From an uncultured Acidimicrobiales bacterium (GTDB taxonomy: Bacteria > Actinomycetota > Acidimicrobiia > Acidimicrobiales > SZUA-35), in the NCBI GenBank assembly GCA_963698395.1, contig CAVOQQ010000001.1, forward strand, positions 2,284 to 66,283: 64,000 nucleotides of DNA, in the 5' to 3' direction. Positions 7,535 through 53,685 of the stretch are shown piece after piece. The translations under genes and the position numbers were made by a program. Each line of letters opens with the position of its first letter. The stretch's first letter is position 1. The notes under the pieces were generated by a model. It saw nothing but the letters and a program-made list of their open reading frames with translations. It ran no database searches and was not told where the DNA came from.

Positions 7535-7638
7535 GTCCAAGGGGGAGTAGCGGGGAGTTACGTAGGTCTCTGAACAGGGTCGAATGCTCCTGACCGGCCG
7601 GACCGGGATTGTCGGATTCGCTCGACAACCCGAAGGTC
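7535..7638 (+). repeat. att-arm-like repeat, copy A (degenerate core, no tRNA T-arm)
   Basis: Aligns by eye at about 85% identity to 10537-10640. Ends in ...GATTCGCTCGACAACCCGAAGG. Lies in the intergenic gap between the BVMO start and the hydrolase-GT stop. Confidence 0.7.
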
Positions 7639-7671
7639 ACCCCGAGAGATGCCTGGTGGCGACTGGTCCGT

Positions 7672-9798
7672 TCAAAGGAGGTTTGCGAGTTGCTCGGCGA
7701 CGACGGCTGCGCCCTTCTCGAATGCCGGCGGAGTTCGTCGTTGTTCAGACGATAGGTCAAGCAGTTCGGCGGCGAGTTCTTCCGGTCCGATGCGGTGGTG
7801 AACGCGCCGTCCGACGCCGTGTCGTCGTAGGCGATGGTCGACGTGGAGTTGTTGCTCGAAGTGGCCTTCGAGGGGTGCGTAGAGGAACGGAACGCCGGCC
7901 GCTGTCAACTCCATCGTTGTGGTCAAGCCTCCTTGGACCACAGCGAGATCGGAGGCGGCCAGCATGCGGTGGAGGTCGGGCACCCATCCGTGAACGTCGA
8001 GTGACGGGGATGCTGCGAATTGCCCGACGGAGATCGATGGGCCGGCGACGAGGACGGTTCGCCACCCGGAGTGTTCGCTCCGGATTCTCTCGTGTGCTGC
8101 AGCGACGCATTCGAGTAGCGCTGCTCCGATGCCGCTGCCGCCGACCGCTGCCACGCACACCGTTTCGTCGGGGTGCCATCCCAGATCGGCCCTGAGGTCT
8201 TCGCGTTCGCCGAGGGATCGGAGATCGAATCCTGTGATGTATCCGCTGTAGGTGAAGTGTTCGTTGACCCAGCTTCGCAGGTCCGGGAGGCCGTCGCCGA
8301 GGCTGACATCGATGACGTCTTCGGGGTCGCCGATGAAGATCGAGGCGTCGCGTACGCCGGGCGTGCGGTCGATGTGGTGAACCATTCGACGGTTCCGGCC
8401 GTGGATCACTCGGCGTTGCAGTTCGCCGCTGTTGGGCAGGGGTAGATCTCCAACGAAGTCGGTGAGCCAGGCGAACCGACCACGTTTCGCAGAAGGTTCG
8501 TCGAGCCAGAACCAGTCGACTTCCCATGCCTCGTCGCCGACGACCAGGTCGTAGTTGCCGTTCTCGACGACGTCCTGGAAGACGGCGAAGTTTCCGTAGA
8601 GGACGTCGGTGGATTCGAAAGCTGCAAGCGTGACATCGAGGTGATGATCAGTCGCGTGTTCGGTCAACCTTTGACATTCAGGCGCCAGGAGCCGCGACGC
8701 AGGATGGACCTGTTCGCCATGGTGACCGAGGACTGCCGTCACGGGGTCCTGCGAGAGCCAGTCGATGTCGACGTCGGGGCAGCGCTTGCGCAGCTCGTCG
8801 GCGATGGCGAGGTCGCGTCGAACGTGGCCGAGCCCGATGGGCGAGGAAAGGTAGAGAACGCGCGGTCCGTGCCCTCGACGCTTCGTTGGTGGCACTGGTG
8901 ATGTCGGGTGTGGGCGCAGCACTGCGAGGAAGTCGTCGATGTATCGATTGACGACAATCGAATGGCGGGTCCCGATGGCGTGGGAGCCGCCATCGATGAC
9001 GCGCAGTTCCGCATTGACGAGGTCTGCTAGCTGCATTGCTCCGGCGACCGGTGAGATTTCGTCGCTCGAACCGTGCAGGAGGAGAACCGGGCACGCAATG
9101 GCGTGTAGTGCGGCCTCCATCTCTTGACTGGGCATGGCCCACTGCTCGCCACCGGACCGAACGTTTGCGACGATGTCATCGATCGACGTCGCCAAGGCGT
9201 ATTCGTAGCTTCGTTCGAGTTCGACATCAGACAAGGGCTCCGACACCGCAAGCTCATGGAAGGCCCGATGGAAGCGCTCGGGGTTCGCCATGGCGGCCTC
9301 GGCGTTGAACCACCCCCACGGATGGTCCTCGACCGCTGGTTCGTCGAAGCGCAGAGCCGCCTCAGCTAGTCCGGGGTGAAAGGCGAACGGTGTCCCGCTT
9401 GCGATGCCCGCCACTCCGACAACCCGTTCGGGTGCTGTTCCTGCCACGAGCAGCGAAACCAGTCCGCCGAGTGAAACGCCGGCGAGCACACACGGCCCGA
9501 GTTCGAGATGATCGAGCAACTCGAGCACGTCGAGCATTCTCCGGGGCACGGCGTGATGGGCGGGGTCGTCGGAGCGTGACGAACCGCCAGTGCCGATCGG
9601 ATCCCAGACCACGGTCCGGTGGCGGCGGGCGAGGTGGGCTACCTGGGCGTCGTACAACTCGCGGCCCAACACGTTGAAGGGCGGGACGAACACGATCGGC
9701 GGGTCCATCGTTGACTCCCCGGCGTGCAGTTCCCACGACAGGAAGAGCCCGTCACTGCGTTGGAAGCGTCCGGCTCGCTCGATCGTCGGCAGCGTCAT
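7672..9798 (-). CDS. alpha/beta hydrolase - GT-B glycosyltransferase fusion protein
   Basis: ORF 7672..9867. The ATG at 9798 is preceded by GGAGAA and overlaps the TetR stop (ATGA). aa 1-~310 are alpha/beta hydrolase (GVSLGG elbow). aa ~335-708 are GT-B-like ([17 protein letters not shown] ... [24 protein letters not shown]). Confidence 0.85.
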
Positions 9799-10409
9799 GG
9801 TTTCTCCTTTGGTTCGACGAAGTGCTCGATGAGGTGATCCCACGTTTGGAGGTACTCGTCGTGCCACAGCGAGCTGCCAGCAAGCCTCTCCCCGATCATC
9901 GATGCCTGCGACGACACGATGGTGGCGGCAATGCCGCGAACGAAGGTGGGGTCCAGTTCCACACCGGCGTCGTCGAGCGCCTGCTGTACGACGTCGGCGA
10001 TCAGGCGGCGCCAGCCATGGAACTGGGGTAGGAGTTCGGCGCGCAGCGCCGGGTGGTCAATGGCAAGGTAGGTCGCCTCGGTCAGACGCCGGGCCCAGCC
10101 GGATTCGAGATCGTCCTCGAAGTAGACCCGTGTCGCCTTCCGCCACTTCTCGAGCGGGGTCAGGTCGCCCGAGTACAGCTCGGCCTGGCGGGCGAGCATT
10201 GCGTCGTTCTCGCGTCGGAACGCGGCGACGAGCAGCGCTTCGAGTGATCCGAAGTGATACCGAATCGAACCATGCGTGGTTCCGGCACGTTCAGTCACCC
10301 GGCGGCTGGTCACTGCTGCGTGACCTTCGCTGGCGAGAAGCTGATCGACGGCATCGAGGAGGGCTTCGGCGGTGGCATGCATTGATTCAGCCTCGCAGAA
10401 ATTCTCCAT
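9795..10409 (-). CDS. TetR family transcriptional regulator
   Basis: 204-aa ORF with N-terminal HTH (AAVTSRRVTERAGTTHGSIRYHF). An alternative start MHATAEA lies at 10382. Its stop overlaps the start of the downstream fusion gene. Confidence 0.85.
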   Translation of the reverse strand: MENFCEAESMHATAEALLDAVDQLLASEGHAAVTSRRVTERAGTTHGSIRYHFGSLEALLVAAFRRENDAMLARQAELYSGDLTPLEKWRKATRVYFEDDLESGWARRLTEATYLAIDHPALRAELLPQFHGWRRLIADVVQQALDDAGVELDPTFVRGIAATIVSSQASMIGERLAGSSLWHDEYLQTWDHLIEHFVEPKEKP

Positions 10410-10536
10410 GTGGAGAACACTACACCACGAAATTCTACAGGTGGAGAAATATCTGACTTGCCCCGTCTTCAGTCACGCGATCTCAAAGCCCGAGTCGATG
10501 TACCAACCATGTACCCGGACAGCGGTAAACAGCAGT

Positions 10537-10669
10537 GTCCAAGGGGGAGTAGTGGGGGGGTACCGTAGGTCCCTGACCAGGGACGAATGCTCCTGACCGG
10601 CCGGAACGGGATTGTCGGATTCGTTCTCATAACCCGAAGGCCGCAGGTTCAAATCCTGCCCCGCCACCA
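10537..10669 (+). repeat. att-arm-like repeat, copy B, ending in a tRNA-Met 3' half
   Basis: About 104 nt homologous to copy A, followed by a T-arm, acceptor 3' strand and CCA. Phased CTGACC motifs lie at 10573 and 10593. Confidence 0.75.
10626..10669 (+). pseudogene. orphan 3' half of an initiator-type tRNA-Met (anticodon loop to CCA)
   Basis: CTCATAA-CCCGA-AGGCC-GCAGG-TTCAAAT-CCTGC-CCCGCC-A-CCA. Upstream there is no GGCGGGG acceptor 5' strand, no D arm and no TCGGG stem partner. The acceptor strand appears 1 nt short. Confidence 0.75.
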
Positions 10670-10680
10670 AATGCCCTGGT

Positions 10681-10710
10681 CAGAGGCTTGCACTTTGGTG
10701 CGGGCCTCTG
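10681..10710 (+). terminator. GC hairpin following the tRNA remnant
   Basis: CAGAGGC...GCCTCTG inverted repeat 12 nt after CCA. No clear T-tract follows. Confidence 0.35.
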
Positions 10711-11045
10711 CCGCGTCTCGGGTCATCGACCAGGCATCGAACAAACCGGGCGCTGGAGGGGCCCCTGCGGGTGTCGAACGTGGTTGGGACCGTGAAGTGC
10801 CTGGTCAGACCGGTCTGGGCGGTTGACCTTCGGGTTCTGGCCCAACCATCGCCCGTACTGCACGCAGCGGCGGATTGTCACGCAAGGTGGTGTCTCGCTG
10901 GCGCCCAGGTGATGTCCGCGACCGGCACGGTTCACGAGAAATCGGTGGCCCATGGAGGTTGGGGCCGCCCCAGCTGGGGCAAGCGCGCCGAGGCGACATC
11001 GACGGGCACTCGCTTGGATTGCGACCACACGACCCTTTCACACAT

Positions 11046-11062
11046 GTAGCACGACGTGCTAC
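11046..11062 (+). promoter_or_regulatory. palindromic candidate operator of the Phd/VapC operon
   Basis: GTAGCAC-GAC-GTGCTAC perfect 7-bp inverted repeat, 11 nt upstream of the antitoxin ATG. Confidence 0.4.
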
Positions 11063-11072
11063 GGTACCCCCC

Positions 11073-11327
11073 ATGAGTGAGACCATCACGCAACGAGAAC
11101 TCCGCAACGGCAGCGGCGAAATCATGCGCCGCCTCGACGAAGGAGAGTCGTTCGTCGTAACCCGCAACGGCGTACCTGTCGGCGAACTCACACCACTGCG
11201 ACGCCTACGATTCGTCACCGCAGAATCGGTCACCGAGATCTTCCGCACCGCACCGTCAATCGACACCAAACAATTCCGCAGCGACCTCGACGCCATCACA
11301 GGCCAGGACATCACACCCCGTGGCTGA
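11073..11327 (+). CDS. type II antitoxin, Phd/YefM-like
   Basis: ATG at 11073 within ORF 10875..11327. MSETITQRELRNGSGEIMRRLDEGESFVVTRNGVPVGELTP is a typical Phd/YefM N-terminus. Its stop overlaps the vapC GTG by 8 nt. Confidence 0.8.
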   Translation: MSETITQRELRNGSGEIMRRLDEGESFVVTRNGVPVGELTPLRRLRFVTAESVTEIFRTAPSIDTKQFRSDLDAITGQDITPRG

Positions 11328-11730
11328 AGCCCGGCCGCTACGCGGGATTCTCGACACCTCCGTCGTGATCGATCTCGAGACGATCGAAGCGCACTCGCTG
11401 CCAGCCGAGGTCGCAATCACCGCGCTCACGATGGCCGAACTCGCCGCTGGACCGCACGCCGCGACAAGCTCAGATGGGCGGGCTCTTCGTCAAGACCGCC
11501 TGCAACGGACCGAAGCCGCGTTCGCTCCGCTCCCGTTCGATGCCGAAGCAGCCCGCGCCTACGGCCGGATCTATGCAGCGGTCGCCTCCGCTGGCCGTAA
11601 GGCGCGAGGCACACGAGCAGTCGACTTGATGATCGCCGCGATCGCTTGTTCGGTCGATCTGCCGCTCTACACCAGGAACCCGAAGGACTTCGCCGCGCTC
11701 GAAGGTCTCGTCGAGATCGTTGCTGTTTGA
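11320..11730 (+). CDS. vapC: PIN-domain ribonuclease toxin VapC
   Basis: 136 aa. GILDTSVVIDLE supplies the first acidic PIN residue. The C-terminal DLMIAAIACSVDLPLYTRNPKDF motif is present. Confidence 0.85.
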   Translation: MAEARPLRGILDTSVVIDLETIEAHSLPAEVAITALTMAELAAGPHAATSSDGRALRQDRLQRTEAAFAPLPFDAEAARAYGRIYAAVASAGRKARGTRAVDLMIAAIACSVDLPLYTRNPKDFAALEGLVEIVAV

Positions 11731-11879
11731 GCAAACAGCAGCTGCCATTTGGCTGCGAGCCTTGGCGCTACCCGCTCCCGAACTTCGAAGACCCCGGTAG
11801 CCCACTTCGCCACGTGGGACGCAATGAAGGGCATGCCCAAACCCCACCCGCTGGCACACCCGACGAGGCGCCCCACGCA

Positions 11880-12245
11880 GTGAGGCGCCAACATTTTCGA
11901 TCGCTGAAGAATGCTGCGCTGGCGTGGCGATGTGGAACAGTCACCTCGTCGCGAAACCAAGTTCGACGCTGGCTGAGGAACCTTGCGAACAACGAGATCT
12001 CCCCGAGTGAGGCCTCCGACCTGGCCTCCCCATGGATCGTCGACCGTGAGCAAGACATATCCGATCCCGCCTCCATTCGCGGCCTTTCGTGGCTACACAG
12101 CGCTGACTTGCCATCCACCGATCGTCGCAACCTTCACGGCCCTGACGACTTCAGCAATTGGCTCGCCTTCAGCAATTGGCTCGCCGACTTCGACGCGCCG
12201 GCTGAACCGGCTTGGGCGGACGAGAGACCAGCGACCTCAAAGTGA
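11880..12245 (+). CDS. orphan hypothetical protein (start uncertain)
   Basis: Distal part of ORF 11646..12245 beyond the vapC stop. First in-frame GTGs are at 11814 and 11880. Third-position GC is lower than in the neighbours. Contains an in-frame 18-bp duplication (FSNWLA x2). Confidence 0.3.
   Translation: MRRQHFRSLKNAALAWRCGTVTSSRNQVRRWLRNLANNEISPSEASDLASPWIVDREQDISDPASIRGLSWLHSADLPSTDRRNLHGPDDFSNWLAFSNWLADFDAPAEPAWADERPATSK
12150..12185 (+). repeat. perfect 18-bp tandem duplication (TTCAGCAATTGGCTCGCC x2)
   Basis: Read directly from the sequence. It is in frame within the orphan ORF. Confidence 0.9.
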
Positions 12246-12293
12246 CCCCGACCGCACAGGTCCAGGGCTCCGAAGAACGCCCCAGAACGCCAG

Positions 12294-12497
12294 CTAGTAG
12301 CACGTCTCCCGCGGCTGCTTGGTTGCCGCCAAGCTCGTGGCAACCAGCGCATCCCACGAGCCGCGTGCCATGACGCTCGGCCAGATCGACGCAGGGCGAT
12401 CAGTCAGGACACCGACGAACAATGTGAAACCGGCGATGGCGACCGTGAACGCCGGTAGCCCGCCCACGCTGCCATACCATCCGAACAAGATCAGCAC
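12294..12497 (-). CDS. possible small membrane protein
   Basis: 67-aa ORF with GTG start and a hydrophobic first 30 aa (LILFGWYGSVGGLPAFTVAIAGFTLFVGVL). No obvious SD. Lies downstream of vapC on the same strand. Confidence 0.25.
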   Translation of the reverse strand: MLILFGWYGSVGGLPAFTVAIAGFTLFVGVLTDRPASIWPSVMARGSWDALVATSLAATKQPRETCY

Positions 12498-12521
12498 GGT
12501 CGCCTGCGCACCGACAGGTTT

Positions 12522-12935
12522 TCAGTCGCTCGGCGCGATGAGTGACACCGTCGGGAAGTAGGTGCGGTAGCGGCTGACGTCTCGGGTGAGGAGCTGCAGT
12601 TCGGCGATCGCCGCGTGGGCGCCAATGAAGAAGTCGGGAAGTGCTGTCGACTTCGTGCCCTGGTTGCGTCGGTAGTTCAGGAAGGCCTTGCCGGCGAGGA
12701 ACGCTGCGGTCCACGGTATGGGCTGGCGCCGATAGTCCTCTTGTGGAAGTGCGTCCTCGAGCGCCTCGATCGTTGTGAACCTGATGGACACCTCGGAGTA
12801 GATAACTGGGTTGATGTAGAGGGGGCCGGTTTCAGCGGCCTCAGCGAGGGTGGTGCTGGACCAGTCCTGCCAGACCGGGTCTTCGGTCAGGATGTCCAGC
12901 AAGATGTTGCTGTCGACCAGCGTCCCGTAGGTCAT
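12522..12935 (-). CDS. vapC: PIN-domain toxin VapC
   Basis: 137 aa. MTYGTLVDSNILLDIL is a PIN N-terminus. ...DFFIGAHAAIAELQLLTRDVSRY is present. Confidence 0.9.
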   Translation of the reverse strand: MTYGTLVDSNILLDILTEDPVWQDWSSTTLAEAAETGPLYINPVIYSEVSIRFTTIEALEDALPQEDYRRQPIPWTAAFLAGKAFLNYRRNQGTKSTALPDFFIGAHAAIAELQLLTRDVSRYRTYFPTVSLIAPSD

Positions 12936-12936
12936 G

Positions 12937-13164
12937 TCACGGTTCCCGGGTGAGAGCCATGATCTCGCTGGTCGTCATGGTGACGTCGCCGCGACCGCGA
13001 AGTCGTTCGACGAGCTGCCGTCCCCGGGTGGGCGGACCGCTTGCCTTGCGCACCACGATGGCATCGTCGTGGCGCTCGAACTCGACCTCGGTGCCCGCCC
13101 CGATGCCGAGTGCATCGCGGATCTCCTTCGGAATGGTGATTTGGCCCTTCTCGGTTACCTTCAT
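12937..13164 (-). CDS. vapB: AbrB/SpoVT-type antitoxin VapB
   Basis: MKVTEKGQITIPKEIRDALGIGAGTEVEF (looped-hinge-helix motif). ATG at 13164. Its stop lies 1 nt from the vapC start. Confidence 0.9.
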   Translation of the reverse strand: MKVTEKGQITIPKEIRDALGIGAGTEVEFERHDDAIVVRKASGPPTRGRQLVERLRGRGDVTMTTSEIMALTREP

Positions 13165-13265
13165 GGTTGGAATCCTAGACGTCGTACTCCTACTCCAGCG
13201 ATGGAAGAGTGGACTTCTGCTCGTCGGGCCGGATCCCACCTGGGTTTGCCGATGGTGATGTTCAT
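13161..13265 (-). CDS. 34-codon upstream ORF translationally coupled to vapB
   Basis: The ATG at 13265 has a strong SD (AAGGGAGG, 8 nt upstream). Product is MNITIGKPRWDPARRAEVHSSIAGVGVRRLGFQP. Its TGA overlaps the vapB ATG (ATGA). Confidence 0.35.
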   Translation of the reverse strand: MNITIGKPRWDPARRAEVHSSIAGVGVRRLGFQP

Positions 13266-13423
13266 GGCAATGGCCTCCCTTGGTTGGTGCTTGAATACCG
13301 GGGGGCACTCCTGATTCGGGTTGATGTGCTCGCGCCTCTTTCGAGCCACACGACGGTGAGACACCGGCCGTCGAAAAGGCGTCGATGCGGGAACCACGAG
13401 TGGCGCACGATCGTCTGAGAACC

Positions 13424-13960
13424 ATGAAGCGAATCACATGGATCTTGGCTTTTGTACTGGTCGCTGCCGCGTGTGGTGACAGCGAAGGTGGGAGCGCAGG
13501 CAGCGGTGTACCGGCCGACGACACTCCAGCGATCATGGCTGCGGCGGTGGAACAGTTGATCGCCGTCGACAACACCTTCGGCGAGGGGCCACCCCCCTTC
13601 AGTCAGTATCTCCTGCTCGATGCCGTTGATCCCGCAGCGGGGTCAGGCGAGGCGGTCGATGCCGCAGTTCGACCGTTGACCGCGAGCGAGCGCTCGGCCA
13701 CCGAGGCGGTGGTGTCGCTGTTCGGCCCAGTCCAATGGATCGGTGATGCCGAGGAGTACCGGACCGAGGATCTTCGTCCGACGGTCGAGGGAGCGGTGAT
13801 CATCGGTGTGGGTGAACCGGTCCTCGATCAGGGTGGTGCGCTCGTGCCTGTATCGCTGTGGTGTGGTGGTTCGTGCGGGACCTGGCTGACCTACCGCGTG
13901 GAGTTGGCCAATGGTGCCTGGACCGTGACCGGCATCGAAGGCCCGATCGCCATCTCCTGA
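13424..13960 (+). CDS. secreted lipoprotein, unknown function
   Basis: MKRITWILAFVLVAAAC is a signal peptide with a lipobox Cys. The remainder is hydrophilic. Confidence 0.75.
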   Translation: MKRITWILAFVLVAAACGDSEGGSAGSGVPADDTPAIMAAAVEQLIAVDNTFGEGPPPFSQYLLLDAVDPAAGSGEAVDAAVRPLTASERSATEAVVSLFGPVQWIGDAEEYRTEDLRPTVEGAVIIGVGEPVLDQGGALVPVSLWCGGSCGTWLTYRVELANGAWTVTGIEGPIAIS

Positions 13961-13993
13961 CAACGATGCCGAACCATTCGACCTGGATCGCCG

Positions 13994-14179
13994 TCACGTT
14001 CGTTCGACGATGAGGAGGAAGTCGATCTTGCGAGTCGTGCCGTAGATCTGCGCCAGGGTCGTCTTCTTGACGTTGGGGATGATCGAAACCACGTCACCGC
14101 TCAGTCCGTTCAAGAACGTTTCCAGCTTCGAGGAATCGGTCTCCATGTTGATGTCCAACCGATGCACCTTGTAGCTCAT
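13994..14179 (-). CDS. 61-aa conserved-looking small protein (DUF4177-like pattern)
   Basis: The ATG at 14179 is preceded by GGAGGT. Product is MSYKVHRLDINMETDSSKLETFLNGLSGDVVSIIPNVKKTTLAQIYGTTRKIDFLLIVERT. GC is lower than the flanks. It is the last gene of the ABC/FtsX operon. Confidence 0.65.
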   Translation of the reverse strand: MSYKVHRLDINMETDSSKLETFLNGLSGDVVSIIPNVKKTTLAQIYGTTRKIDFLLIVERT

Positions 14180-17653: not shown

Positions 17654-19105
17654 ATGGACATCACGTTGCGAAGTGCAGGCGAACAGGCGGCAGCGGTGGC
17701 AGCGACGACGATTTCGGCCTCGGAGCTTCTCGACGAAACGCTGGACCGATACGAGCGGTTCAACCCCGCCATCAACGCCGTCGTGTTCACCCAGATCGAG
17801 GCAGCCCGTCAGCGAGCGCTCGATGCCGACGAAACAACGGCTCGTGGCGAATCGTGGGGTCCTCTCCACGGCGTCCCGATGACGATCAAGGAGGCGTGGG
17901 ATTGGCTGGGCTCACCCTCGACGTCCGGTCATCCAGAGCTGGTCGACTGGCGTCCTGCGGGGAACTGCGAGCCGGTTCAGCGTCTCCTCGACGCTGGAGC
18001 GATCATCTACGGCAAGTCCAACCTGCCGGTGTCGATGGCCGACTGGCAGACCTTCAACCCGGTCTACGGAACGACCTCCAATCCCTGGAATCACGACCTC
18101 ACCCCAGGTGGCTCATCGGGAGGCGCCGCTGCGGGTGTCGCCGCAGGTTTGTCAGCGCTCGAGCTGGGAAGCGACATCGGTGCGTCCATTCGGAACCCGG
18201 CCCACTACTGCGGGATCTTCGGCCACAAGCCCACCTACGGATTGGTGCCCACGACGGGCCATGGCAGCCCGGGGAATCCGGCCGAGCTCGACATCGGCGT
18301 CGGCGGACCCTTGGCCCGCTACGCATCGGACCTGACGCTCGGACTCGATGTCGTTGCCGGCGCCAAAGGGCTCGAGGCAAGAGGATGGAAGCTGGACCTG
18401 CCTGCGCCGCGCAAGGATCATCCCGAGCAGTTGCGCGTCGCCGTCATGCTCGAGAGCCCCTGTGTCGTACAGGACAGCGAGCTGACCGACCAGCTGGCGG
18501 CGACGGTCGAGGCCCTGTCATCGCTCGGCGTGCAGGTCGACTACGACGCCCGACCAGACCTCGACATCGTCCGCAGCCATGAGGTCTACCTGATGTTGTT
18601 GCGAGCGACGACCGGTACGGAGTACCCACTCGAGGCCTACGAGGCGCAACTGCCCCACGCCGATCGATACCGCGCTGGCGACCGGGACTACCGAGCCGTC
18701 GTGGGAAAGGCGGTCACCCTCAGCCATTGGGAGTGGACTGCCTATCACCGCGAACGCGAAACCGAGCGCCTGGCATGGGATGCCTTCTTCGATGAGTACG
18801 ACCTGTTGCTGTGCCCGACGGCGGCTTCGGCGGCGTATCCCCACGATCACACCGGGGAGCGAGCCGACCGCACCATTCCGGTGAATGGTGGGCAGGAGTC
18901 GACCATCGACCAGTTGTTCTGGGCCGGATGGTCCTGCGGTGTCTACCTCCCGGGGACGGTTGCGCCTGCGGGACTCACGGCATCAGGCCTTCCCTGCGGC
19001 CTCCAGATCGTTGCCGGGCATCTGCGTGACCGCGAGTCGATCGCCTTTGCCGGGTTCATGGAACGCGAGCTCGGCGGTTACCGGGTTCCTCCGGGCTACG
19101 ACTGA
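17654..19105 (+). CDS. amidase (amidase-signature family)
   Basis: ORF 17594..19105 with start MDITLRS at 17654. AS motif GGSSGGAAAGVAAG...GSDIGASIRNPA is present. Confidence 0.9.
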   Translation: MDITLRSAGEQAAAVAATTISASELLDETLDRYERFNPAINAVVFTQIEAARQRALDADETTARGESWGPLHGVPMTIKEAWDWLGSPSTSGHPELVDWRPAGNCEPVQRLLDAGAIIYGKSNLPVSMADWQTFNPVYGTTSNPWNHDLTPGGSSGGAAAGVAAGLSALELGSDIGASIRNPAHYCGIFGHKPTYGLVPTTGHGSPGNPAELDIGVGGPLARYASDLTLGLDVVAGAKGLEARGWKLDLPAPRKDHPEQLRVAVMLESPCVVQDSELTDQLAATVEALSSLGVQVDYDARPDLDIVRSHEVYLMLLRATTGTEYPLEAYEAQLPHADRYRAGDRDYRAVVGKAVTLSHWEWTAYHRERETERLAWDAFFDEYDLLLCPTAASAAYPHDHTGERADRTIPVNGGQESTIDQLFWAGWSCGVYLPGTVAPAGLTASGLPCGLQIVAGHLRDRESIAFAGFMERELGGYRVPPGYD

Positions 19106-19425
19106 CGCCTGCCGTGTCGACATCGAGCTCCAGCGGGCCCGGACGCGACTGATCCAGTCGCGGGAGGAGGAACGACGTCGACTCCGCCACGGTCTCCACG
19201 ACGGACTCGGCCCCATCCTCACCGGTGTTGCGTTCTCTGCGGATGCGGCCGCGAATGTCGTTTCGACGGCTCCGCACGAGGCTGGCGAGCTCATCGCAAC
19301 GTCACGCCCGCGGTCGATGGGGTCCGGCGCATTGTCGAGGATCTCCGGTCGCCGGCCCTGGACGAAATCGGCAGGGCGCACGAGTTGGGCCGATCGGTGG
19401 GCCGGTGCATGACGCATCGTCGCTG
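19101..19425 (+). pseudogene. internal fragment of a NarL-type sensor histidine kinase (HisKA_3 region)
   Basis: DACRVDIELQRARTRLIQSREEERRRLRHGLHDGLGPILTGVAFSADAAAN. About 14 mismatches in ~205 aligned nt versus 55516-55720, then an indel and frameshift. There is no N-terminal sensor and no ATPase domain. Confidence 0.8.
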
Positions 19426-20123: not shown

Positions 20124-20124
20124 C

Positions 20125-37959: not shown

Positions 37960-38551
37960 GGCAGGATTCATTCGAGACACCGACGCAATTCCTGAACGAG
38001 GTGCCCGAAGCACGGCCCGCTCCAGTCCGATCTCGCCAGTGCCGCAGACCCAGGCCACGAGATGATCGCGACACAGGACGAACAACCAGCCACTCGGCAA
38101 CCGACGAAGTGTTTGACCTGAACGGGAACAAGGGGGCGGTCGTAGTTGGCTGAGTGCCGGAAGCAGAACACGATTGCGACGCTCGATCGGCGGCATGTCG
38201 GTGTCGTGCGGCCAGCTCATGGCGTCTGGCAGAGGTCGACTGTCGGCCCGGTGATTTGCCGGCCCGGACGAGTTCGCCGACAAAGGTGACGTCAAGCGCG
38301 CTCGGGACAAGGTCGGCGGCCGGTGGAGCAGGTCGGGTTCGGTGACGTCGGTGAAGCGCTGTGCCAGGTTGTCCCCGGAGCTGCTGGAGGTGGTGCAGGC
38401 GATGGTCTTCGACGGTCTGACCGCTCGGGAGGCGGGGCGACATGCTCGGTCTCCCCGAGGGCACGGTGAAGGGGCGGATCCGCAAGGCGAAGGCCGAGTT
38501 GCGCGACGTCGCTCGGCACGACTGTCGTTCGAGTTGGGAGATCTGCGATGA
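37960..38551 (+). pseudogene. ECF sigma factor, fragmented
   Basis: The region-4 HTH is split over two frames (LSPELLEVVQAMVFDGLTAREAG at 38342.. and MLGLPEGTVKGRIRKAKAELR at 38442..). A possible region-2 trace WLAECRKQNTIATLDRR near 38,150 follows an in-frame stop. Confidence 0.5.
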
Positions 38552-39300
38552 GCTCATGGCACGTCGACGAACGCGCGCTACGTGGCGTACGCCGCTCGGG
38601 AGCTCGAGGCTGCTCCAGCGAGCATCGGTCGAGGCCCACGTCATGGGTTGCGGGACATGCCGGGCTGACCTGGCTCGCCTCACCGGCGGTGCGGTCGGCA
38701 CGTTGTCGTTCGAGCGGCTGTGGGATCGCAGTGCAGACGCGTGGTCGAGCTGCGCTCGGCGGTCCGTATCGACGCGGTGGCTCCGTCGCGATCGGTGTCG
38801 CCGAGCGCGGACACGGTGATGGTCGCGTCAGATCGGCAGGCAGTGCCTGCAGTGGACGATCGCGACCACGCTGATGCTCGCGCTGGCAGCTTTCGCGGCG
38901 GCGCTCGGCGTGCACGACTCGGCGCGGCTCGGGTTCGTGCTGCTCGCGCCGCTGCTGCCGGCGCTGGGAGTGGCTGCGACCTACCGCCTCACTCCGACCA
39001 GCACGACTGCGGCGCTCGAGATCACATCGCCGTACTCGCCGGCACGGCTGCTGTTGTGGCGAACCGGCGTACTGCACGTCGCCACCGCCGTACCGACCGC
39101 GATCGCACTCGGGTCGATCATCCCGGGAGCTCGCGTGGATGGCGGTCGCGTGGCTGCTGCCGAGCGCTGCGTGCACGACGATCGTGCTCGTCGCGGCCAC
39201 CTGGACCGACCCGGTCAGGCCGGCGGTGGCGATGTCGGCCAGTCTGGCTCGGGCTCGTCGCCACCTGGCACATACGACACGTTCCTGACGCGGTGTCCAC
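38548..39300 (+). pseudogene. zf-HC2 anti-sigma factor with membrane domain, multiple frameshifts
   Basis: MSSWHVDERALR, then VEAHVMGCGTCRADLARL (H-x3-C-x2-C) in another frame. The TM segments (LMLALAAFAAALG...LLAPLLPALGVAATY) are in a third frame. Confidence 0.55.
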
Positions 39301-39420
39301 GCCGGCGACGCAGTTCGCATCGCTCGCTCATCGCCGCTGGCGGCTGGTGCCGTGTTCGACTCGCCGACTGCGTCGTCTTCCGCAGTCCCCGCTCTCTGAT
39401 CCGAAGAAAGGCCCATCCGA

Positions 39421-40315
39421 TGAACGTCACCATCCAACTCGAGCACGTCACCCGCCGGTATCGCGATGCCGTCGCGCTCGACGACGTCACGTTGCAGATC
39501 GGCACCGGCATCACTGCGCTGCTCGGGCCGAACGGCGCCGGCAAGACAACACTGCTGTCGCTGCTTGTCGACCGCGGCGGCACCCGACGCGGGATGCGTC
39601 GAGGTACTCGGCCATCGTGCTGAACGGGACCGCTCGCCGAGCGGACCGAGATTCGTCGCCGGCTCGGCTTCCTGCCCCAGGAGGTCGAGTTCCCGTCGGG
39701 GATGACGGCGTTCGGGTTCCTCGAATACATCGCGGTGCTCAAGGAGTGGAACGACAAGACAGCACGACACCACGAGATCCGTCGCGTGCTTCGACGCCGT
39801 ACAACTGGCCGACCGGCCGACGATCAAGATCCGCAAGCTCTCGGGTGGCCAGCGCCGCCGATTGGCGTTCGCCCAGGCGCTGATCGGCGAACCGGACCTG
39901 CTGATCCTCGACGAACCGACGACCGGCCTCGATCCCGAGCAACGAGCCGTGTTCCGGGCGACGCTGTCCGAACGCGGCCGCCACGGCACCGTGCTGCTCG
40001 CCACCCACCAGACCGAAGACGTCGGCGCCGTGTGCGACCACGTACTCGTGCTCGACCACGGCAGGGTCGCGTTCGCCGGTGACGTGCCTTCGTTCATCGA
40101 CTCGGCCCGCGGGCGCGTGTGGGTCGACGACGCTCCGGTTCCGAACGCGATCGCCACGTGGCGAGACCCCAACCGGCGGGTCAGATCGGTCGGCGGCGAT
40201 CCGCCGCCGACCGCACGACCCTGCCGACCCCACCGTCGAGGACGCCTATCTCCTCCTCGTCGGCCCGACCGCAAACGCAGAGGGTGGCAGCATGACCACG
40301 GCGACCGCCGGCTGA
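39421..40315 (+). pseudogene. ABC transporter ATP-binding protein, at least 4 frameshifts
   Basis: MNVTIQLEHVTRRY...GPNGAGKTTLL (Walker A), MTAFGFLEYIAVL, LSGGQRRRLAFAQAL...LLILDEPTTGLD and the C-terminal DPTVEDAYLLLVG each lie in different frames. Confidence 0.75.
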
Positions 40316-41196
40316 TGTCGAGCGACGATCGATCGGTCATCGGCGACCGCTCGCATGGCTGCTGCTCGTTCGGATGGAGATGATCCGATACGCACGGCCG
40401 TCCGGCGTTCGTACTCGGGGCAGGCGCTGACACTGGCCGTCCTCCTGCCGTACCTCGATCCGGCAGAGCCGGTCGACGAGCTGTCGATGATCGCTCCGGC
40501 AGCACTGATCGGACTGATCGGAATCACGCTCGAGCGCGCAGCGGGTCTGGGCATCGGACCGGTGCGCCGACGCGGCTGGTTCGACACCGGTGCCGATGGC
40601 TACCCGCACTCTCGCCCACCTCGCCGCCTGTCTGGTGCCGTTCACCGTCGGGCTGGTCTTCGTCGCGGTCAGCTACGTGCGCTACCTGACCGATCCTCCA
40701 CCTGCGAGCGGGTACGCGGCGCTTGATGTCGGACGGATGGGTGGCTGGCGGTCTGGTTCGCGCTCGGTGCGGTGAGCTGTCTCGGCGGGCCGATCCTCGG
40801 CGTCCTCATCGCCAGGATGACCGAGCGACGATGCGGCGCCGATCCTCATCTCGGTCGGGCTCGTCGCACTGGTCATCGTGTTCCAAGGCCTGTTCGAACC
40901 ACTACGCCGAATCCGCGTGGTCATGCCGTGGACCTACTGGGGCGGGCCGTTCGGCATCGACGGCGACCCGCAACGCTCGATGGTCCTGACCGGATCGCCA
41001 TACTGGTGGGTCGGTGTACCTGCTGATGCTGTGTGCCATCGCTGCGCTGGCGGCGACTCCGGCGGGATCGCACCTGGCGATCGCCTCGCAACAGGACGGC
41101 ACTGGCTGTCGCTCGCGGATCGCTGCCGTGATCACCTGTCTGCTGGCGATGTGGACCGGCACGCGCGGACACGATCATCAACCCGCTCCCCGGTGA
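40316..41196 (+). pseudogene. ABC-2-type membrane protein, heavily frameshifted
   Basis: TM-like stretches (LAHLAACLVPFTVGLVFVAVSY, GGPILGVLIA, ISVGLVALVIVFQGLF, YLLMLCAIAALAA) are scattered over all three + frames. Confidence 0.45.
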
Positions 41197-41199
41197 CGG

Positions 41200-41836
41200 G
41201 ATCAGCTGACGTGGGTGAGCCCAGCGATGCGATCCGCGTCATCGCCCGCTACAGCCGTACCGGCGACACCGTGGGGCCTGTTGGCGACGAACGCTGCGGT
41301 TCGTTGATCGGGCTCCTGCTGATCGTCGCTCGCTGGCCGGCGGCGATGTGGCCGCTGCACGGCGCGGCGATCGGGCTGCTCGGCGGCGTGTCGGCGTGGT
41401 CGGTCGACGAGCGCTGCTCGGCAATCGTCGACGTCGCGCCCCGCCCGCTGTGGTGGCGCACCGTCGCCCGAACACCAGCGGCACTTCTGCTCGTCGTCAG
41501 CGTGGATCGCGAGCACATCTCGCCGTTCGCGACCGGCTCCCCGATCACCTCGGCGTCCTCATCCTGCAAGGAACCAGCGCTGCCGCAGCCGGGTTTGCCG
41601 CCGCGACGTGGCAGCGAACCCGCAGCCAATCCGAACCCGGGCAGCGGATCGCCATGTTCATCTGTCCCGCAGTCGTGGCGATCGCGCTGGCGAAGCCCTG
41701 GAGCGAACACGCGCCCCTGTTCCCGATCTGGCCGCACGAGAACTGGCCCCGGGCAACCATGATCTGGTCCGTCACCGCCGGGCTTGCGGTCGTGAGCCTG
41801 GCCGTGGCGCTGACGCGAGATGCAGCCGACCAGTGA
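41200..41836 (+). pseudogene. second membrane protein of the decayed operon
   Basis: LIGLLLIVARWPAAMWPLHGAAIGLLGGVSAW lies in the frame of ORF 40878... The C-terminus ...MFICPAVVAIALAKPW...MIWSVTAGLAVVSLAVAL lies in the frame of ORF 41348..41836. Confidence 0.4.
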
Positions 41837-41887
41837 TGATCGCGATCGCGTGCGTCTAGCGTCGAACATGCGCGTCATCTCAAGCCC

Positions 41888-42075
41888 GTTGAGATGCCGG
41901 CGAAGAGCTCACAGAAAGCTCACGGGACAGGCGTAAGCAGTGGGGAGCAGCGGAGAACACTGGCCGTCGTCCTAGGCCGTTGACCTGCGATTGCGCGTGT
42001 TTCCCCAGGTCATCCGACGAGTCCCAATGTGCTCATAACCCGGAGGTCGTGGCTTCAAATCCACCCCTGCCGCCA
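41888..42075 (+). repeat. att-arm-like repeat, copy C, ending in a second tRNA-Met 3' half
   Basis: Homologous to 45742-45906 at about 75-80% by eye. CTCAC motifs lie at 41908 and 41919. Ends ...CTCATAACCCGGAGGTCGTGGCTTCAAATCCACCCCTGCCGCCA. Confidence 0.7.
42032..42075 (+). pseudogene. orphan 3' half of a tRNA-Met (CAT) gene
   Basis: Anticodon loop CTCATAA, CCCGG, variable AGGTC, then a T-arm GTGG/CCAC with an 8-nt loop (1 extra nt), the acceptor 3' strand and CCA. Upstream ATGTG cannot pair with CCCGG, and no acceptor 5' strand is present. Confidence 0.7.
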
Positions 42076-42090
42076 TTTACCCTGTTCAGG

Positions 42091-42120
42091 GGGCTGTATT
42101 TCGGTACAGCCCTCTTTCGC
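42091..42120 (+). terminator. rho-independent-type terminator after the tRNA remnant
   Basis: 8-bp stem GGGCTGTA/TACAGCCC with a 6-nt loop, followed by TCTTTCGC. Confidence 0.6.
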
Positions 42121-42130
42121 GTACCGGGCT

Positions 42131-42156
42131 CTCACGCAGATCTCACACCAGCTCAC
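42131..42156 (+). promoter_or_regulatory. three helically phased CTCAC motifs (candidate arm-type protein-binding sites)
   Basis: CTCAC at 42131, 42142 and 42152 (spacing 11 and 10 bp). The same motif pair with 11-bp spacing occurs at 41908/41919 and 45763/45774. Confidence 0.35.
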
Positions 42157-42346
42157 AAATTTGGGCGGGAATCCCTGTGATCAAGCCGCCGATGGAGCGA
42201 CCTTCGGGTTGGGTGCCCGACGAGAAGCTGCGGAATTCGGAACGTATCGGGGATTCCAGACCGCAGGGCCGCCCGAGTGGGTGTCGACTGCCAGCCGTAG
42301 CGCACCCGGTTGCTCGAGAACCGAGAGTGGGTAGCTGGCGGAGGTC

Positions 42347-42634
42347 TCAGTGAACCGTTGCCGCGGCTTCTGCCGGAACGATCCGTGCGGTGTGGCGACG
42401 GCGGTGGACGAGGGTTGCGATGCCGATGCCGGCGGCGAGGATCGTGTAGTTCACGGCGAAGTAGGCGAGCGTGTTCGCGAGCGGCTCGTCGGCTTGTTCG
42501 CCCAGCAGGACGTTGTGGGTCTGGAACGGCATGATGAGCAGCCAGACCGCGGCGAGGGCGATGTAGAGGTGGCGTCGGTTGGGTACGAACCATCCGAGGG
42601 TGGGGGCCAGGATGACGATGGCAATGAGGTTCAT
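42347..42634 (-). CDS. small membrane protein (3 predicted TM)
   Basis: 95 aa: MNLIAIVILAPTLGWFVPN...LYIALAAVWLLIMPF...AYFAVNYTILAAGIGIATLV. Confidence 0.5.
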   Translation of the reverse strand: MNLIAIVILAPTLGWFVPNRRHLYIALAAVWLLIMPFQTHNVLLGEQADEPLANTLAYFAVNYTILAAGIGIATLVHRRRHTARIVPAEAAATVH

Positions 42635-45519: not shown

Positions 45520-45720
45520 GTCATCCAATCCGGTCCGTCGGAAGGGTGTCCAGCCGGTCGCAGCGGGAGCTTCTCGAACGGATGGGGACGACCCAGTTGG
45601 TGATCTCGCTTCTCGAGAAACAGGGTGGGACACGGAACCGGATCGACACCCTCGTCCGGGTCGCGAAGGTGCTGGATCGGTATCTGGTGGCGTCGTTGCT
45701 GACACGAGGCCCCCGAAATG
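45520..45720 (+). pseudogene. XRE-type HTH protein remnant (copy 1)
   Basis: ...SQRELLERMGTTQLVISLLEKQGGTRNRIDTLVRVAKVLDRYLV within ORF 45399..45863. It lacks its own start and abuts the RR1 stop. Confidence 0.5.
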
Positions 45721-45741
45721 CTCACCGACGCCATCCAGGTC

Positions 45742-45906
45742 GCTTGACGAGATCTCGAAAGGCTCACAGAAAACTCACGGACCGGCGGGAAACAGGGGGC
45801 AGCAGCGGGGAACACCTCTCGTCGTCGCAGGCTGTTGACCAGCAATTTCTCGTGTTTCCCTAGGTCAGCGAAGTAGTCGCAATGTGCTCATGACCCGAAG
45901 GTCGGC
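45742..45906 (+). repeat. att-arm-like repeat, copy D (core truncated after the variable loop)
   Basis: Homologous to copy C. Ends ...CAATGTGCTCATGACCCGAAGGTCG, then unrelated low-GC DNA. Confidence 0.7.
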
Positions 45907-45997: not shown

Positions 45998-47104
45998 CTA
46001 GAGCCGTTTCTGGAGAAGGGCAAGACCGATGTCACCAATGGTTTTGGGAGGTCGGGCACCTGAAGTCGCCACGAGGTTGTCAACGGCCTCTACCAATTCG
46101 ACCTCCGACTTGGCCGACATCTCCTCGTTCACTACTGGCAGCGCTTCAACTCGCGTCGGCCATTGATCTGCCGCCTGTGTCATGTGCGCGTAGCCGGAGT
46201 CAGCGAGCTTCGCCCTGAGTTCCTGGTAGCCCGACTCGTCTAAGTAGAGCGCTGCGACATTCAATATCGACCTCGCTGCGTCCGACTTGTCGCGGTCCTT
46301 CAATTCGAGCGTCTCGTTCAGGATTGAAGCGACCAGCGATTCATCAGGTGTGAGAAGCCAAAGCCAGGGGTAGAGCGTGGACCGTTTGCGCAGTGCGCTT
46401 TGAATAACAAGGCTCGCGCTTCCCGGCCGTTCGAAACTCAGTGCTGCCCGATTCAGCCAGAGATAGCCGAGATCGGCGCCGGAGAGCAGTTTCTCCGGCC
46501 GATGTTCGAAGATGTCCGTTGCTTGCGAAAGAAGCATCGACGGCGGATCGTGAGGACCGGAGTCGTCAACGAGCTGGACTTTCGTCTCTGCGGGCGCATT
46601 CATGACGAGGGTCAGATTCGCCAGAATCGACTCCCGCTCACGTCTTGCGGCGTCCCGAGACCATGCCCGGTAGTCCGCTTGACGAGCGGGCTCGGCCTTG
46701 GTGTTTCGTCGGACGTACACGGCGTTCTGCGGGAAAACCGTGTCGTGCTTCTTACCGCTCCGCACGTTGCCCACCTTGCTGAGCACCAGCGGAGGCTCTG
46801 CAAACGCAGGGATGTCGAGAACGACCGTTGGTAGTGACCCAGCCGCTCGGACCAGTTCGACTCCGACTTCGATTCGGTCAGGTGAGATGAATCGGTCCAA
46901 CAGGTCACCCACGACAGAGGAGTCGAATTTGGCAGCCAGTTCCTCGTCCAGGCCGATCCTCGTACCGTCGTCTGCGAATCCGATCTTGATCGTTCCTCCG
47001 CCGGAGTTTGCCATCGCAACAATCTCTCGAACCAACATCAGCTTTGAGCGTTGGTCGCCGAGATCAACCACCGTCTTGTATTCAACGTCTGCGTTCTCCG
47101 CCAC
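45998..47104 (-). CDS. AlbA_2/Schlafen-type domain protein with uncharacterised C-terminal domain
   Basis: 368 aa. The N-terminus EYKTVVDLGDQRSKLMLVREIVAMANSGGGTIKIGFADDGTRIGL matches the AlbA_2 pattern (E.K...l.k.i.AfANs.GG.i.iG). Codon usage is low-GC. Confidence 0.7.
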   Translation of the reverse strand: MAENADVEYKTVVDLGDQRSKLMLVREIVAMANSGGGTIKIGFADDGTRIGLDEELAAKFDSSVVGDLLDRFISPDRIEVGVELVRAAGSLPTVVLDIPAFAEPPLVLSKVGNVRSGKKHDTVFPQNAVYVRRNTKAEPARQADYRAWSRDAARRERESILANLTLVMNAPAETKVQLVDDSGPHDPPSMLLSQATDIFEHRPEKLLSGADLGYLWLNRAALSFERPGSASLVIQSALRKRSTLYPWLWLLTPDESLVASILNETLELKDRDKSDAARSILNVAALYLDESGYQELRAKLADSGYAHMTQAADQWPTRVEALPVVNEEMSAKSEVELVEAVDNLVATSGARPPKTIGDIGLALLQKRL

Positions 47105-50209: not shown

Positions 50210-50383
50210 GGTTCAGCCCCGCATTTCATCGCATCGCCGTAGGGAGTTTGGGCCCGGTTCCTCTTGCTCGGATCCAGTCGACGTCAGCTGCACGTGCTTG
50301 CGACCTGTTCTGCTGGATCGTTACCGGCACAACGAAATCAAGTCGCCGACGCCTTGTAGAAGGAGGGTGCGAGACTCTCTGCG

Positions 50384-50767: not shown

Positions 50768-50912
50768 CCACCTTCGGTTGACGTTCCGCCATCGATGGAC
50801 GCTGTGGTCATCGGCTGCTTGCGACGAGTTCGCCGATCTCGTCATCGACGGAATCGGGCGGTTGACCGTCTGAGCGATCGTCAGTCGTTGGATGCGAGGG
50901 CGAACGGGGCCA

Positions 50913-52628: not shown

Positions 52629-52789
52629 TCAGACCTTCCTTCGAAATCGACAGCGGTGGTCCGCAGTCGGACACCATATCAGCAGGCCTTTCGTCACGTC
52701 GGTGTCCGACGCGCCGGTCCGTCCTGCTGGTCGACCGTTCTCGGCGAAATCGCTCGCACCGGTCATCCACTCAGGAGGCGTGGCAAGTA

Positions 52790-52930
52790 GTTCCGCAACG
52801 CAGCGGGAGTCGGCTGAGAGGATTGGCCCCACCCAGGGGGTCGTCTCTCGCCTCGAGGAACGTGGTGGGGCCCGGGACCCGATCGACACCCTCGCGTGAG
52901 TCGCGAATGCTTTGGACCGGCACCTGCAGG
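52790..52930 (+). pseudogene. XRE-type HTH protein remnant (copy 2, with in-frame stop)
   Basis: TQRESAERIGPTQGVVSRLEERGGARDPIDTLA*VANALDRHL. About 70% nt identity by eye to 45560-45690. Confidence 0.5.
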
Positions 52931-53483
52931 AATACGCTGAGTTGCTCGGCAGTCCAGGCCTGGGCTTCGTGTTTGGGGATCGAGCGGAGCCTCGGGGCGT
53001 GGGCGACGGTGCGGGTGAGGATGCCTCGTTTCACCGCCGCGGTGAGTGCGCCGCGGATGATGAGGTGGATCTCGAGCACCGTCTTCGGTGCGAGCTCCTT
53101 CACGTCGGGGTCGGTGGGTCGGAGTTTGGTGTCGTAGAGAGCTTCGAGGTCGGTGACCTTGAGACGCCGGATCGGAACGGTGCCGAGCGTGGGGAGGATG
53201 TGGCGTTCGATCTTGCGGCGGTAGCCATGCCAGGTCGACTCGGCGAGGGTGTTCGCTTTGCCGGGGAGCCACTGACCGGTGAGGAAAGCACCGAAGGTGA
53301 GTGACCGGGTTGTGTCGTTGGCGCCGTCGACTTCGGCGGCGAGCTTGCTGGCGAGGGTCTCGGCAGCCTTCCTGTCGGGCCGGCGGGATGCCAGGTCCGC
53401 TTTTCGTTGCCGGTGATGGGGTCGAGTCCTTCGTAGATGACGGCGTAGAACCGGTTGCCCTTCTTCGCGACGTAGCCCTTCAT
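52925..53483 (-). pseudogene. tyrosine integrase, N-terminal half only, plus a frameshift (~53,375)
   Basis: The ATG at 53483 follows GGAAGGAG. MKGYVAKKGNRFYAVIYEGLDPITGNEKRTWHPAG, then (other frame) KAAETLASKLAAEV...TFGAFLTGQWLPGK...STWHGYRRKIERHILPTLG...AWTAEQLSVFL. The catalytic domain is missing. Confidence 0.8.
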
Positions 53484-53574
53484 GGCAGTGCTCCTTCCGG
53501 GAGCCCGATGGTCGGGCACTCGATTGAAGCATCGGTAGAAGCGCACGTGGTTGCCGGCGTGACCCGCGCTGCGT

Positions 53575-53685
53575 CCGCAAGGTCTCTACGAGACTCGGGG
53601 CGGAACAAGGGCGATTTCCCGGGTGGTCGGGAATCTGACCTCTGTCGGCCGGGAACGGGGGCGTGGTTGTGTTCGAGGCATGAAC
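53575..53685 (+). repeat. possible diverged att-arm-like repeat, copy E
   Basis: Shares AGGTCTCT, AACA(A)GGG, (A)TCTGACC and GGCCGG(G)AACGGG blocks, in the same order, with copies A and B. Lies directly upstream of the integrase start. Confidence 0.35.

Follow-up and report, generated by a model that had tools for sequence, protein, structure and literature searches.

A window of 64,000 nucleotides from the genome of an uncultured Acidimicrobiales bacterium (assembly GCA_963698395.1, contig CAVOQQ010000001.1, positions 2,284 to 66,283) contains four copies of an intergenic repeat, termed A, B, C and D, which are probably the junction scars of successive site-specific integrations into the gene for initiator tRNA-Met (tRNA-fMet). 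Each copy consists of an arm of 100-130 nt with periodic direct repeats followed by initiator tRNA-Met identity, and in all four the tRNA identity begins exactly at the anticodon loop (CTCATAA). A decayed tandem array of integrative elements targeting this tRNA had been proposed from the sequence of the window without database searches (the original prediction). That proposal is supported by related contigs in which homologues of the window integrase lie beside an intact tRNA-fMet gene or beside the same kind of unit, and in which the units again form arrays.

A repeat family of four copies and two subclasses

The four copies share the + strand and a position between called genes (gene call based on codon usage). 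Copy A is flanked by a flavin monooxygenase gene (5634-7457, -) and a hydrolase gene (7672-9798, -), B by a TetR gene (9795-10409, -) and a Phd/YefM antitoxin gene (11073, +), and D by a remnant of a higA gene and an AlbA_2/Schlafen gene (45998-47104, -), while C precedes a small gene (42347-42634, -). Copies A and B have ∼105-120 nt in common (89% identity over 72 nt in the repeat finder, family D6), and C and D are 78% identical over 149 nt (family D2), in agreement with the two subclasses that had been proposed. A model of the A/B class finds A and B at E values of 1e-39 to 1e-42 (nhmmer). Within the window alone the similarity between the classes is marginal, with the C/D model finding B at E=0.011 and the A/B model finding D at E=0.23. 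A hidden Markov model (HMM) was built from 12 metagenomic copies alone, using their arms and not their tRNA part. The matches of this arm-only HMM in the window are, in rank order, C (2e-25), D (2e-23), B (4e-5), a reverse-strand match inside copy C, and A (0.07). Since all four are found by this one model, A, B, C and D belong to a single family with two subclasses.

If no more than one mismatch is allowed, the tRNA-like block CTCATAACCCGAAGG has three matches on the + strand (in B, C and D). When up to three mismatches are allowed on both strands there are five matches, compared with 0.92 expected by chance, and 0/100 shuffles gave as many as five. The core of copy A is a variant longer by one base, CTCGACAACCCGAAGG. 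The original prediction had included a fifth copy, E (53575-53685), which no model finds at E≤100 and which has no core match; hence the family has four members, not five. The shared ordered blocks, the intergenic position and the common orientation claimed for all five hold for A to D, and of the statements on E only its adjacency to an integrase remnant, as the 5' flank of that gene, stands. The true fifth vestige is on the 3' side of the remnant, at ∼52.93 kb.

Anatomy of the units

Copies B and C extend from the anticodon loop through the T arm and acceptor strand to a CCA-like end, as originally read, and then into a terminator-like hairpin (Table 1). The acceptor strand of B is one C short. 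In A and D the tRNA segment comprises only the anticodon loop to the variable loop, with no T arm after it. The arm of the C/D class contains two CTCAC[A/G]G repeats at 11-nt spacing and then three CAG[C/T]GGGG(A)A repeats at 10-nt spacing, followed by an inverted TGACC...GGTCA pair, a short variable stretch and the tRNA identity. Beyond the tRNA segment, B and C retain 73% identity over 100 nt of their downstream sides (repeat family D4). The hallmarks of attP, the phage attachment site of lambda-type recombination, are a core flanked on either side by periodic direct repeats and an integrase with a domain for arm binding. The arm architecture of the units resembles the arm-site layout of attP, and by this analogy the repeats would be bound by the integrase.

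Other arm classes have repeats of their own, for example TCTACCG in the related loci L028 and L031 and in L033-L035. In another relative (L002, 2740-2793; identical to L024) an internal 20-nt tandem duplication in the G-rich block has produced five 10-nt repeats instead of three, which suggests that the number of arm sites is evolutionarily flexible. A further conserved feature is a hairpin that mimics an inverted anticodon stem (GACCT-TCGGG-loop-CCCGA) and is located 170-200 nt 3' of complete units, in the window at 10822-10846 and 42199-42222 and also in L002 and L004. Conserved between elements, it could be a second core-type binding site. The sequence TTGACC within the arm was considered as a promoter element and rejected, as there is no conserved -10 box at a distance of 17-19 nt.

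Relatives in other Acidimicrobiia

Outside the window the unit occurs at ∼25 places, in metagenome-assembled Acidimicrobiia genomes and in metagenome contigs, frequently as one of three units in a same-orientation array, and it is linked there to the 3' half of tRNA-fMet and to integrases. A gapped pattern searched against 185,579 species genomes gave two copies, both in metagenome-assembled genomes (MAGs) of Acidimicrobiia, and three patterns searched against viral contigs gave no match. The arm motif GCTCACAGAAANCTCACGG matched 28 metagenome loci, of which 12 are true family members. Eleven of these (L009 was excluded because its contig ends inside the arm) are on contigs that are long enough to be read through, and in 11/11 the arm leads into CTCATAACCCGAAGGTC and then into the T arm, CCCCGCC-A-CCA and a terminator. 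Among the 26 units tabulated outside the window, 20 have a perfect 5-bp T stem plus CCCCGCC-A-CCA, and all units of any one contig point the same way. Same-orientation arrays of units bound short gene modules in L028, L031 and L033, with three units each in L028 and L031 at intervals of 4-8 kb.

The relatives also illustrate how the tRNA segment varies. In the first unit of L028 (Rfam, 33.5 bits) the match to the tRNA already begins at the 3' strand of the D stem, so that elements differ in how much of the tRNA they match. In the second unit of L028 (6969-7015) the T arm is chimeric, its 5' strand (GCAGG) and its 3' strand (CCAAC) coming from two tRNA-fMet variants, the pattern that would be expected as the footprint of recombination between two tRNA variants at a point between the T-stem strands.

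The most complete layout is that of L033. It contains an intact initiator tRNA-Met gene, which the window lacks (tRNA-Met(CAT) at 11261-11337 by ARAGORN; Rfam, 65.6 bits), with two units following. Its anticodon stem has the GGG/CCC pairs that are typical of initiator tRNAs. A convergent integrase gene, the product of which is 55% identical to the window remnant, lies 66 nt from the tRNA gene. In the direction of the tRNA the order is tRNA-fMet, integrase, a 6.4-kb island with an AEP-type primase, a unit (arm plus 3' half), a 2.9-kb segment with a Fic gene, and a second unit. All three tRNA segments of L033 have the T-arm variant GAAGG/CCTTC.

Integrases and HigA-like genes beside the units

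The sole integrase trace in the window is a remnant of a tyrosine integrase, cut before the catalytic domain. It is 48-55% identical to the integrases of L035 and L033, and homologues of it carry the Phage_int_SAM_3 and Phage_integrase domains. In L031, L034 and L035 the 3' end of the integrase homologue faces a unit composed of arm and 3' half, and in L003, L006, L016 and L021 a tyrosine integrase gene is located 3' of the unit on the opposite strand, again with its 3' end toward the unit; the L016 enzyme has an Arm-DNA-bind_4 domain. Full-length homologues of the window remnant converge on tRNA-fMet (L033) or on 3'-half units. Four of the five integrases beside units in L031-L035 are split by frameshifts, at different residues (∼233-248, 277 and 306-313), and one is also broken by an rve-type insertion sequence (IS). 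Homologues of ∼315 residues recur, and a programmed frameshift was considered as the cause; because the breaks differ in residue and direction and one is an IS insertion, they are attributed to independent decay or assembly errors. If some of these contigs are long-read assemblies, as they may be, part of the breaks could be errors of assembly. Since most of the integrases of the relatives are also broken, decay after integration is normal in related arrays.

A second gene recurs on the other side of the units. A gene of the XRE family with a helix-turn-helix (HTH) domain (HTH_3, 1.7e-12; weakly MqsA_antitoxin) ends 8-19 nt 5' of the arm in L009, L010, L011, L013, L017, L028 and at copy D of the window. 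In L031, L034 and L035 a Gp49/HigB-type toxin gene adjoins a related HTH gene just 5' of the unit, and the two are therefore regarded as a HigBA-like pair. The window retains two HigA-like remnants, the first of which (at 45558) is 71% identical to residues 45-96 of the HigA-like protein of L028. Both start at about residue 45 of a protein of ∼106 residues, and no higB is left. Either they derive from one ancestor that was already truncated, or a conserved element end begins inside higA. At ∼52.93 kb the second remnant (repeat family D3) is fused to the truncated integrase in the order seen in relatives, where higA precedes the unit and the integrase faces it. The most plausible origin of this junction is the loss of ∼1 kb that comprised the arm, the tRNA segment and the C-terminal half of the integrase.

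Table 1 Features of the repeat family and its surroundings in the window
Feature	Position	Strand	Description
Copy A	7520..7640	+	Class A/B arm and degenerate core; arm-only metagenome HMM E=0.07
Arm of copy A	7540-7558; 7591-7595	+	G-rich 10-nt repeats; TGACC
Core of copy A	7621-7638	+	Degenerate, CTCGACAACCCGAAGGTC; no T arm follows
Copy B	10522..10669	+	Class A/B arm and initiator tRNA-Met 3' half
tRNA-Met 3' half of copy B	10626-10669	+	Anticodon loop, variable loop, T arm GCAGG/CCTGC, acceptor strand, CCA
Terminator-like hairpin after B	10681..10710	+	CAGAGGC...GCCTCTG; homologous to hairpin after C
Hairpin on downstream (P') side of B	10822..10846	.	Like an inverted anticodon stem plus variable loop (GACCTTCGGGTT...)
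Phd/YefM and PIN pair	11073-11730	+	VapBC-type; directly after B
PIN and small upstream open reading frame	12522-13164	-	VapBC-type; 3' of B
Copy C	41901..42075	+	Class C/D arm and tRNA-fMet 3' half; arm-only metagenome HMM E=2e-25
Arm of copy C	41907-41925	+	Two CTCAC[A/G]G at this position; G-rich 10-nt repeats; inverted TGACCTG...CAGGTCA
tRNA-fMet 3' half of copy C	42032-42075	+	T stem damaged (mismatched), acceptor strand diverged
Downstream (P'-type) side of C	42086..42222	+	Read directly from the sequence
Terminator hairpin after C	about 42088-42114	+	
CTCAC repeats after C	42131-42156	+	Three, 10-11 nt spacing
Pseudo-anticodon hairpin after C	42204-42220	+	TCGGG-TTGGGTG-CCCGA
HigA-like XRE-family HTH remnant	45558..45747	+	5'-truncated, frameshift near end; stop 8 nt before D arm
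Copy D	45756..45905	+	Class C/D arm and core CTCATGACCCGAAGGTCG; arm-only metagenome HMM E=2e-23
CTCAC repeats of copy D	45762-45780	+	In the class C/D arm
Second HigA-like remnant	52798..52926	+	In-frame stop; ends at truncated integrase
Tyrosine integrase remnant	52921..53532	-	Arm-binding N-terminus and SAM-like core-binding domain; cut at about residue 188 of ∼400
Copy E of the original prediction	53575..53685	+	Not a family member; 5' flank of integrase remnant

A model for the array and the points that weigh against it

We propose that each copy represents the P-arm end of an island joined to the part of the tRNA that starts at the anticodon loop. The periodic arm-type repeats would be bound by a tyrosine integrase that has an N-terminal domain for arm binding, and strand exchange would take place at or near the 7-nt anticodon loop, since it is exactly there that the tRNA identity begins. 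The incoming element would bring a new tRNA 3' half and terminator, so that the tRNA gene would stay intact, and the old 3' half would be shifted downstream to a position behind the arm of the element. Repeated rounds would generate a same-orientation array of tRNA, integrase, island, arm plus 3' half, integrase, island, and arm plus 3' half. In the window the array would be old, with all integrases lost except for one truncated remnant and with one junction deleted at ∼52.93 kb. The T arm would have disappeared from copies A and D, damage would have accumulated in the 3' halves of B and C, and the A-B and C-D segments would now have the appearance of integrase-less modules between att-type (attachment) sites. 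We infer that each copy in the window corresponds to a separate integration event. The term integrative element is applied to the A-B, B-C and C-D modules by extension, because they contain no integrase, and on this reading they would once have been mobile or would still be so.

Several observations weigh against integration scars. The window contains neither an intact tRNA-fMet nor a tRNA 5' half, family scans of the A-B, B-C and C-D modules found no integrase or transfer genes, and the B-C segment consists mostly of ordinary metabolism genes. For the A/B arm class, relatives were found neither in the collections searched nor in the fetched loci. Neither an excision product nor an empty site was observed in metagenome contigs over window positions 5000-14000, which derive from four runs at ∼4x depth and are fragmented, with no informative joints; foreign tRNA-fMet genes were piled up on the 3' half of B in these contigs. 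Finally, A and D have nothing recognisable beyond the variable loop. The CCCCG of A and the CACCCCGCC of D, which come after the core, look to the eye like an acceptor strand that follows a 12-16 nt deletion of the T stem-loop. The residual post-core similarity of A to B and of D to C is not significant when compared with shuffles, so that a clean T-arm deletion is only a possibility.

A more far-reaching possibility, which we consider unlikely, is that the arm-plus-core units are still active and that the initiator-tRNA locus is an open platform for gene capture in these Acidimicrobiia. If so, any stretch bounded by two units could be cut out in circular form with one complete attP-like unit (arm, core, terminator and P' repeats) and be re-inserted at tRNA-fMet, in the same or another cell, by an integrase acting in trans. 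Such segments would be comparable to integron cassettes built on a tRNA fragment, with the adjacent HigBA pairs stabilising each cassette.

Alternative explanations

The alternative that survives best, although it is improbable, is that the A/B and C/D pairs arose by local segmental duplication or homologous recombination and that only one or two true att junctions ever existed. The members of each pair are mutually closest (89% for A/B, 78% for C/D) and only 3.0 and 3.9 kb apart, the modules between them are devoid of mobility genes, and both higA remnants are truncated at the same residue (∼45), yet no duplication extends into the sequence that separates the paired copies or lies outside them. 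Identities of 78-89% imply old or independent origins, and in L028, L031 and L033 there are again arrays with comparable spacing whose content is not duplicated.

Less probable still is that the units are genes for a structured, tRNA-like noncoding RNA (ncRNA), with a 5' domain, a tRNA-fMet-like 3' half and its own terminator, that integrases merely target. There is a terminator hairpin after every complete unit, and the 5' block of the arm is highly conserved. In some copies the AGCGGGG block, as read from the sequence, could pair with the 3' acceptor strand, but this candidate 5' acceptor block varies without compensating changes. RNAalifold, applied to seven and to six homologues, gave covariation in the T arm inherited from the tRNA and nowhere else. 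The folding z-scores of A, B, C and D relative to shuffles are +0.13, -1.0, +0.21 and -2.17, respectively, and a conserved RNA structure was rejected on these scores together with the RNAalifold results. No curated family was matched in the window at the Rfam gathering score, copy B attaining 18.5 bits in the tRNA family compared with the 29-bit cut-off. The 10-11 nt periodicity of the direct repeats in the arms is typical of protein-binding DNA, and L033 has a normal tRNA-fMet at the position where such an RNA gene would be located. A tRNA gene with an intron or insertion and a tmRNA-like gene (transfer-messenger RNA) were likewise rejected on the basis of ARAGORN and Rfam. ARAGORN found 0 tRNA and 0 tmRNA genes in the window and called no arm-bearing unit a tRNA, relatives included. 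Both readings are weakened further by the lack of a 5' anticodon-stem strand in most units, where the sequence 5' of the anticodon loop (…AATGTG) cannot pair as an anticodon stem, and by the absence of covariation in the 5' acceptor block.

A generic dispersed intergenic repeat (of the repetitive extragenic palindrome or miniature inverted-repeat transposable element type) would account for the intergenic positions and the inverted TGACC...GGTCA repeat in the arms, but it is extremely improbable given that 11/11 sufficiently long true loci run into the tRNA-fMet 3' half, that orientation is uniform within each contig, that integrases and higA genes are the flanks, and that there were 0 matches in viral contigs and, with the strict pattern, two in the species genomes. 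The scenario that the original prediction had named as fatal to it, a genome-wide repeat without a link to tRNA genes or integrases, is effectively refuted.

Gene content of the modules

Apart from the units, the integration-scar reading divides the window into modules of differing gene content. The A-B module (3 kb) encodes an alpha/beta hydrolase with a GT28-like tail and a TetR regulator. The B-C module (31 kb) comprises two VapBC-type pairs, 25 kb of transport and catabolism genes and a GC-rich stretch of ∼3.5 kb just 5' of C (38300-41880), which has a GC content of 0.68-0.69 and long open reading frames on both strands with no Pfam match. The C-D module (3.7 kb) has genes for a small membrane-like protein, for one that matches GAF weakly and for a LuxR-type response regulator, and it includes the first higA remnant. 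The segment from D to the integrase remnant contains the AlbA_2/Schlafen gene, several unknowns and ilvD. The GC content of the window is a mosaic, at 0.61-0.64 after B and after D and at 0.67-0.69 at 37-42 kb and 54-60 kb, which is weakly consistent with a patchwork origin.

Two further features of the B-C module were noted. A fragment of ∼280 nt from a histidine kinase gene (54052-56163, HisKA_3 region) is duplicated, with copies at 19102-19377 and 55514-55802 (93% and 84% identity). The copy inside the B-C module directly follows the stop codon of an amidase gene, and it is likely a pseudogene piece that records exchange between two modules. In addition, read depth over an intergenic stretch of 49 nt (13303-13351), located 5' of the gene at 13400-13960, exceeds that of its flanks by a factor of 5-15 in each of the four metagenome runs. 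Numerous contigs become divergent on either side of this stretch and it has no Rfam match even at E≤1; it seems to be a short, widely shared sequence.

Implications

The process described here, accretion of islands at a tRNA gene (tDNA), is a known one, found in the little-studied Acidimicrobiia, and it leaves the understanding of tDNA islands unchanged. What it adds is a map of an integration hot spot at initiator tRNA-Met and of the attachment-site architecture in this class, an abundant and mostly uncultured lineage of sediment and soil for which there are no genetic tools. The arm motif combined with the tRNA 3' half provides a simple marker for island boundaries in MAGs of Acidimicrobiia. 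Standard island finders would miss such boundaries, since the integrases have decayed and tRNA finders ignore fragments. The arrays are apparently deeper than usual, with at least three units on several contigs, which makes them useful for the study of island accretion and decay. Moreover, an intact integrase, such as that of L035 with 401 residues, together with a defined attP/attB pair could serve as an integration tool in high-GC Actinomycetota.

Comparison with known systems

An integron cassette array with attC sites was rejected as a model, since the integrase is of the arm-binding phage type and the units are not palindromic and, in three of the four copies, fold no better than shuffled sequences. 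Like the attP site of phage lambda, the units have arm-type direct repeats on both sides of the core (two upstream and three downstream in C) and an integrase with a separate arm-binding N-terminal domain, although the repeat sequences are unrelated to those of lambda.

The A-B and C-D modules fit the structure of the cis-mobilizable elements (CIMEs) of the ICESt1/ICESt3 family, which are decayed elements that lack integration and transfer genes, retain their att sites and accrete in tandem with newer arrivals (PMC5704250). Both modules are segments between two same-orientation att-type sites without integrase or transfer genes. The ICESt1/ICESt3 CIMEs are found in Firmicutes at the fda gene or tRNA-Lys and their cis-mobilization has been shown, whereas mobilization of the modules of the window is putative.

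The closest published parallel for deep arrays is the ssrA region of Dehalococcoides, where many direct repeats of the tmRNA 3' end occur in the same orientation with a conserved motif just upstream of each, and where islands lie in tandem, some of them without integration genes and discussed as cis-mobilizable (PMC3146451). Both systems consist of tandem, same-orientation repeats of the 3' end of an essential small-RNA gene. They differ in that Dehalococcoides has a tmRNA target, a 20-bp repeat and a serine recombinase, while here the target is initiator tRNA-Met, the recombinase is a tyrosine recombinase, and the repeat is a tRNA segment of ∼45 nt with a conserved arm of 100-130 nt.

In the tDNA islands catalogued by Islander, a tRNA gene is split by a tyrosine integrase and made whole again by the island itself, and the far end is recognised by the displaced 3' fragment (PMC4383910). 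Arrays form when several islands use one tDNA, each with its own integrase and with an intact tDNA, and arrays of three or more are rare (4/3919 islands) (PMC4383910). As in these islands, the attachment site of the Acidimicrobiia units has the anticodon loop at its centre and the far end bears a displaced 3' fragment, in that A to D are tDNA fragments in gene orientation from the anticodon loop onward. They are unlike them in that arrays of at least three recur in these contigs, that the window holds one truncated integrase, with none following A, B, C or D, and that the intact cognate tDNA at the head of the array is seen in L033 and is not in view in the window. Strict membership in the Islander class thus fails for the window, given the lack of an intact tDNA in view and of an integrase in each island. 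At the level of mechanism, nevertheless, the match to tDNA islands is strong.

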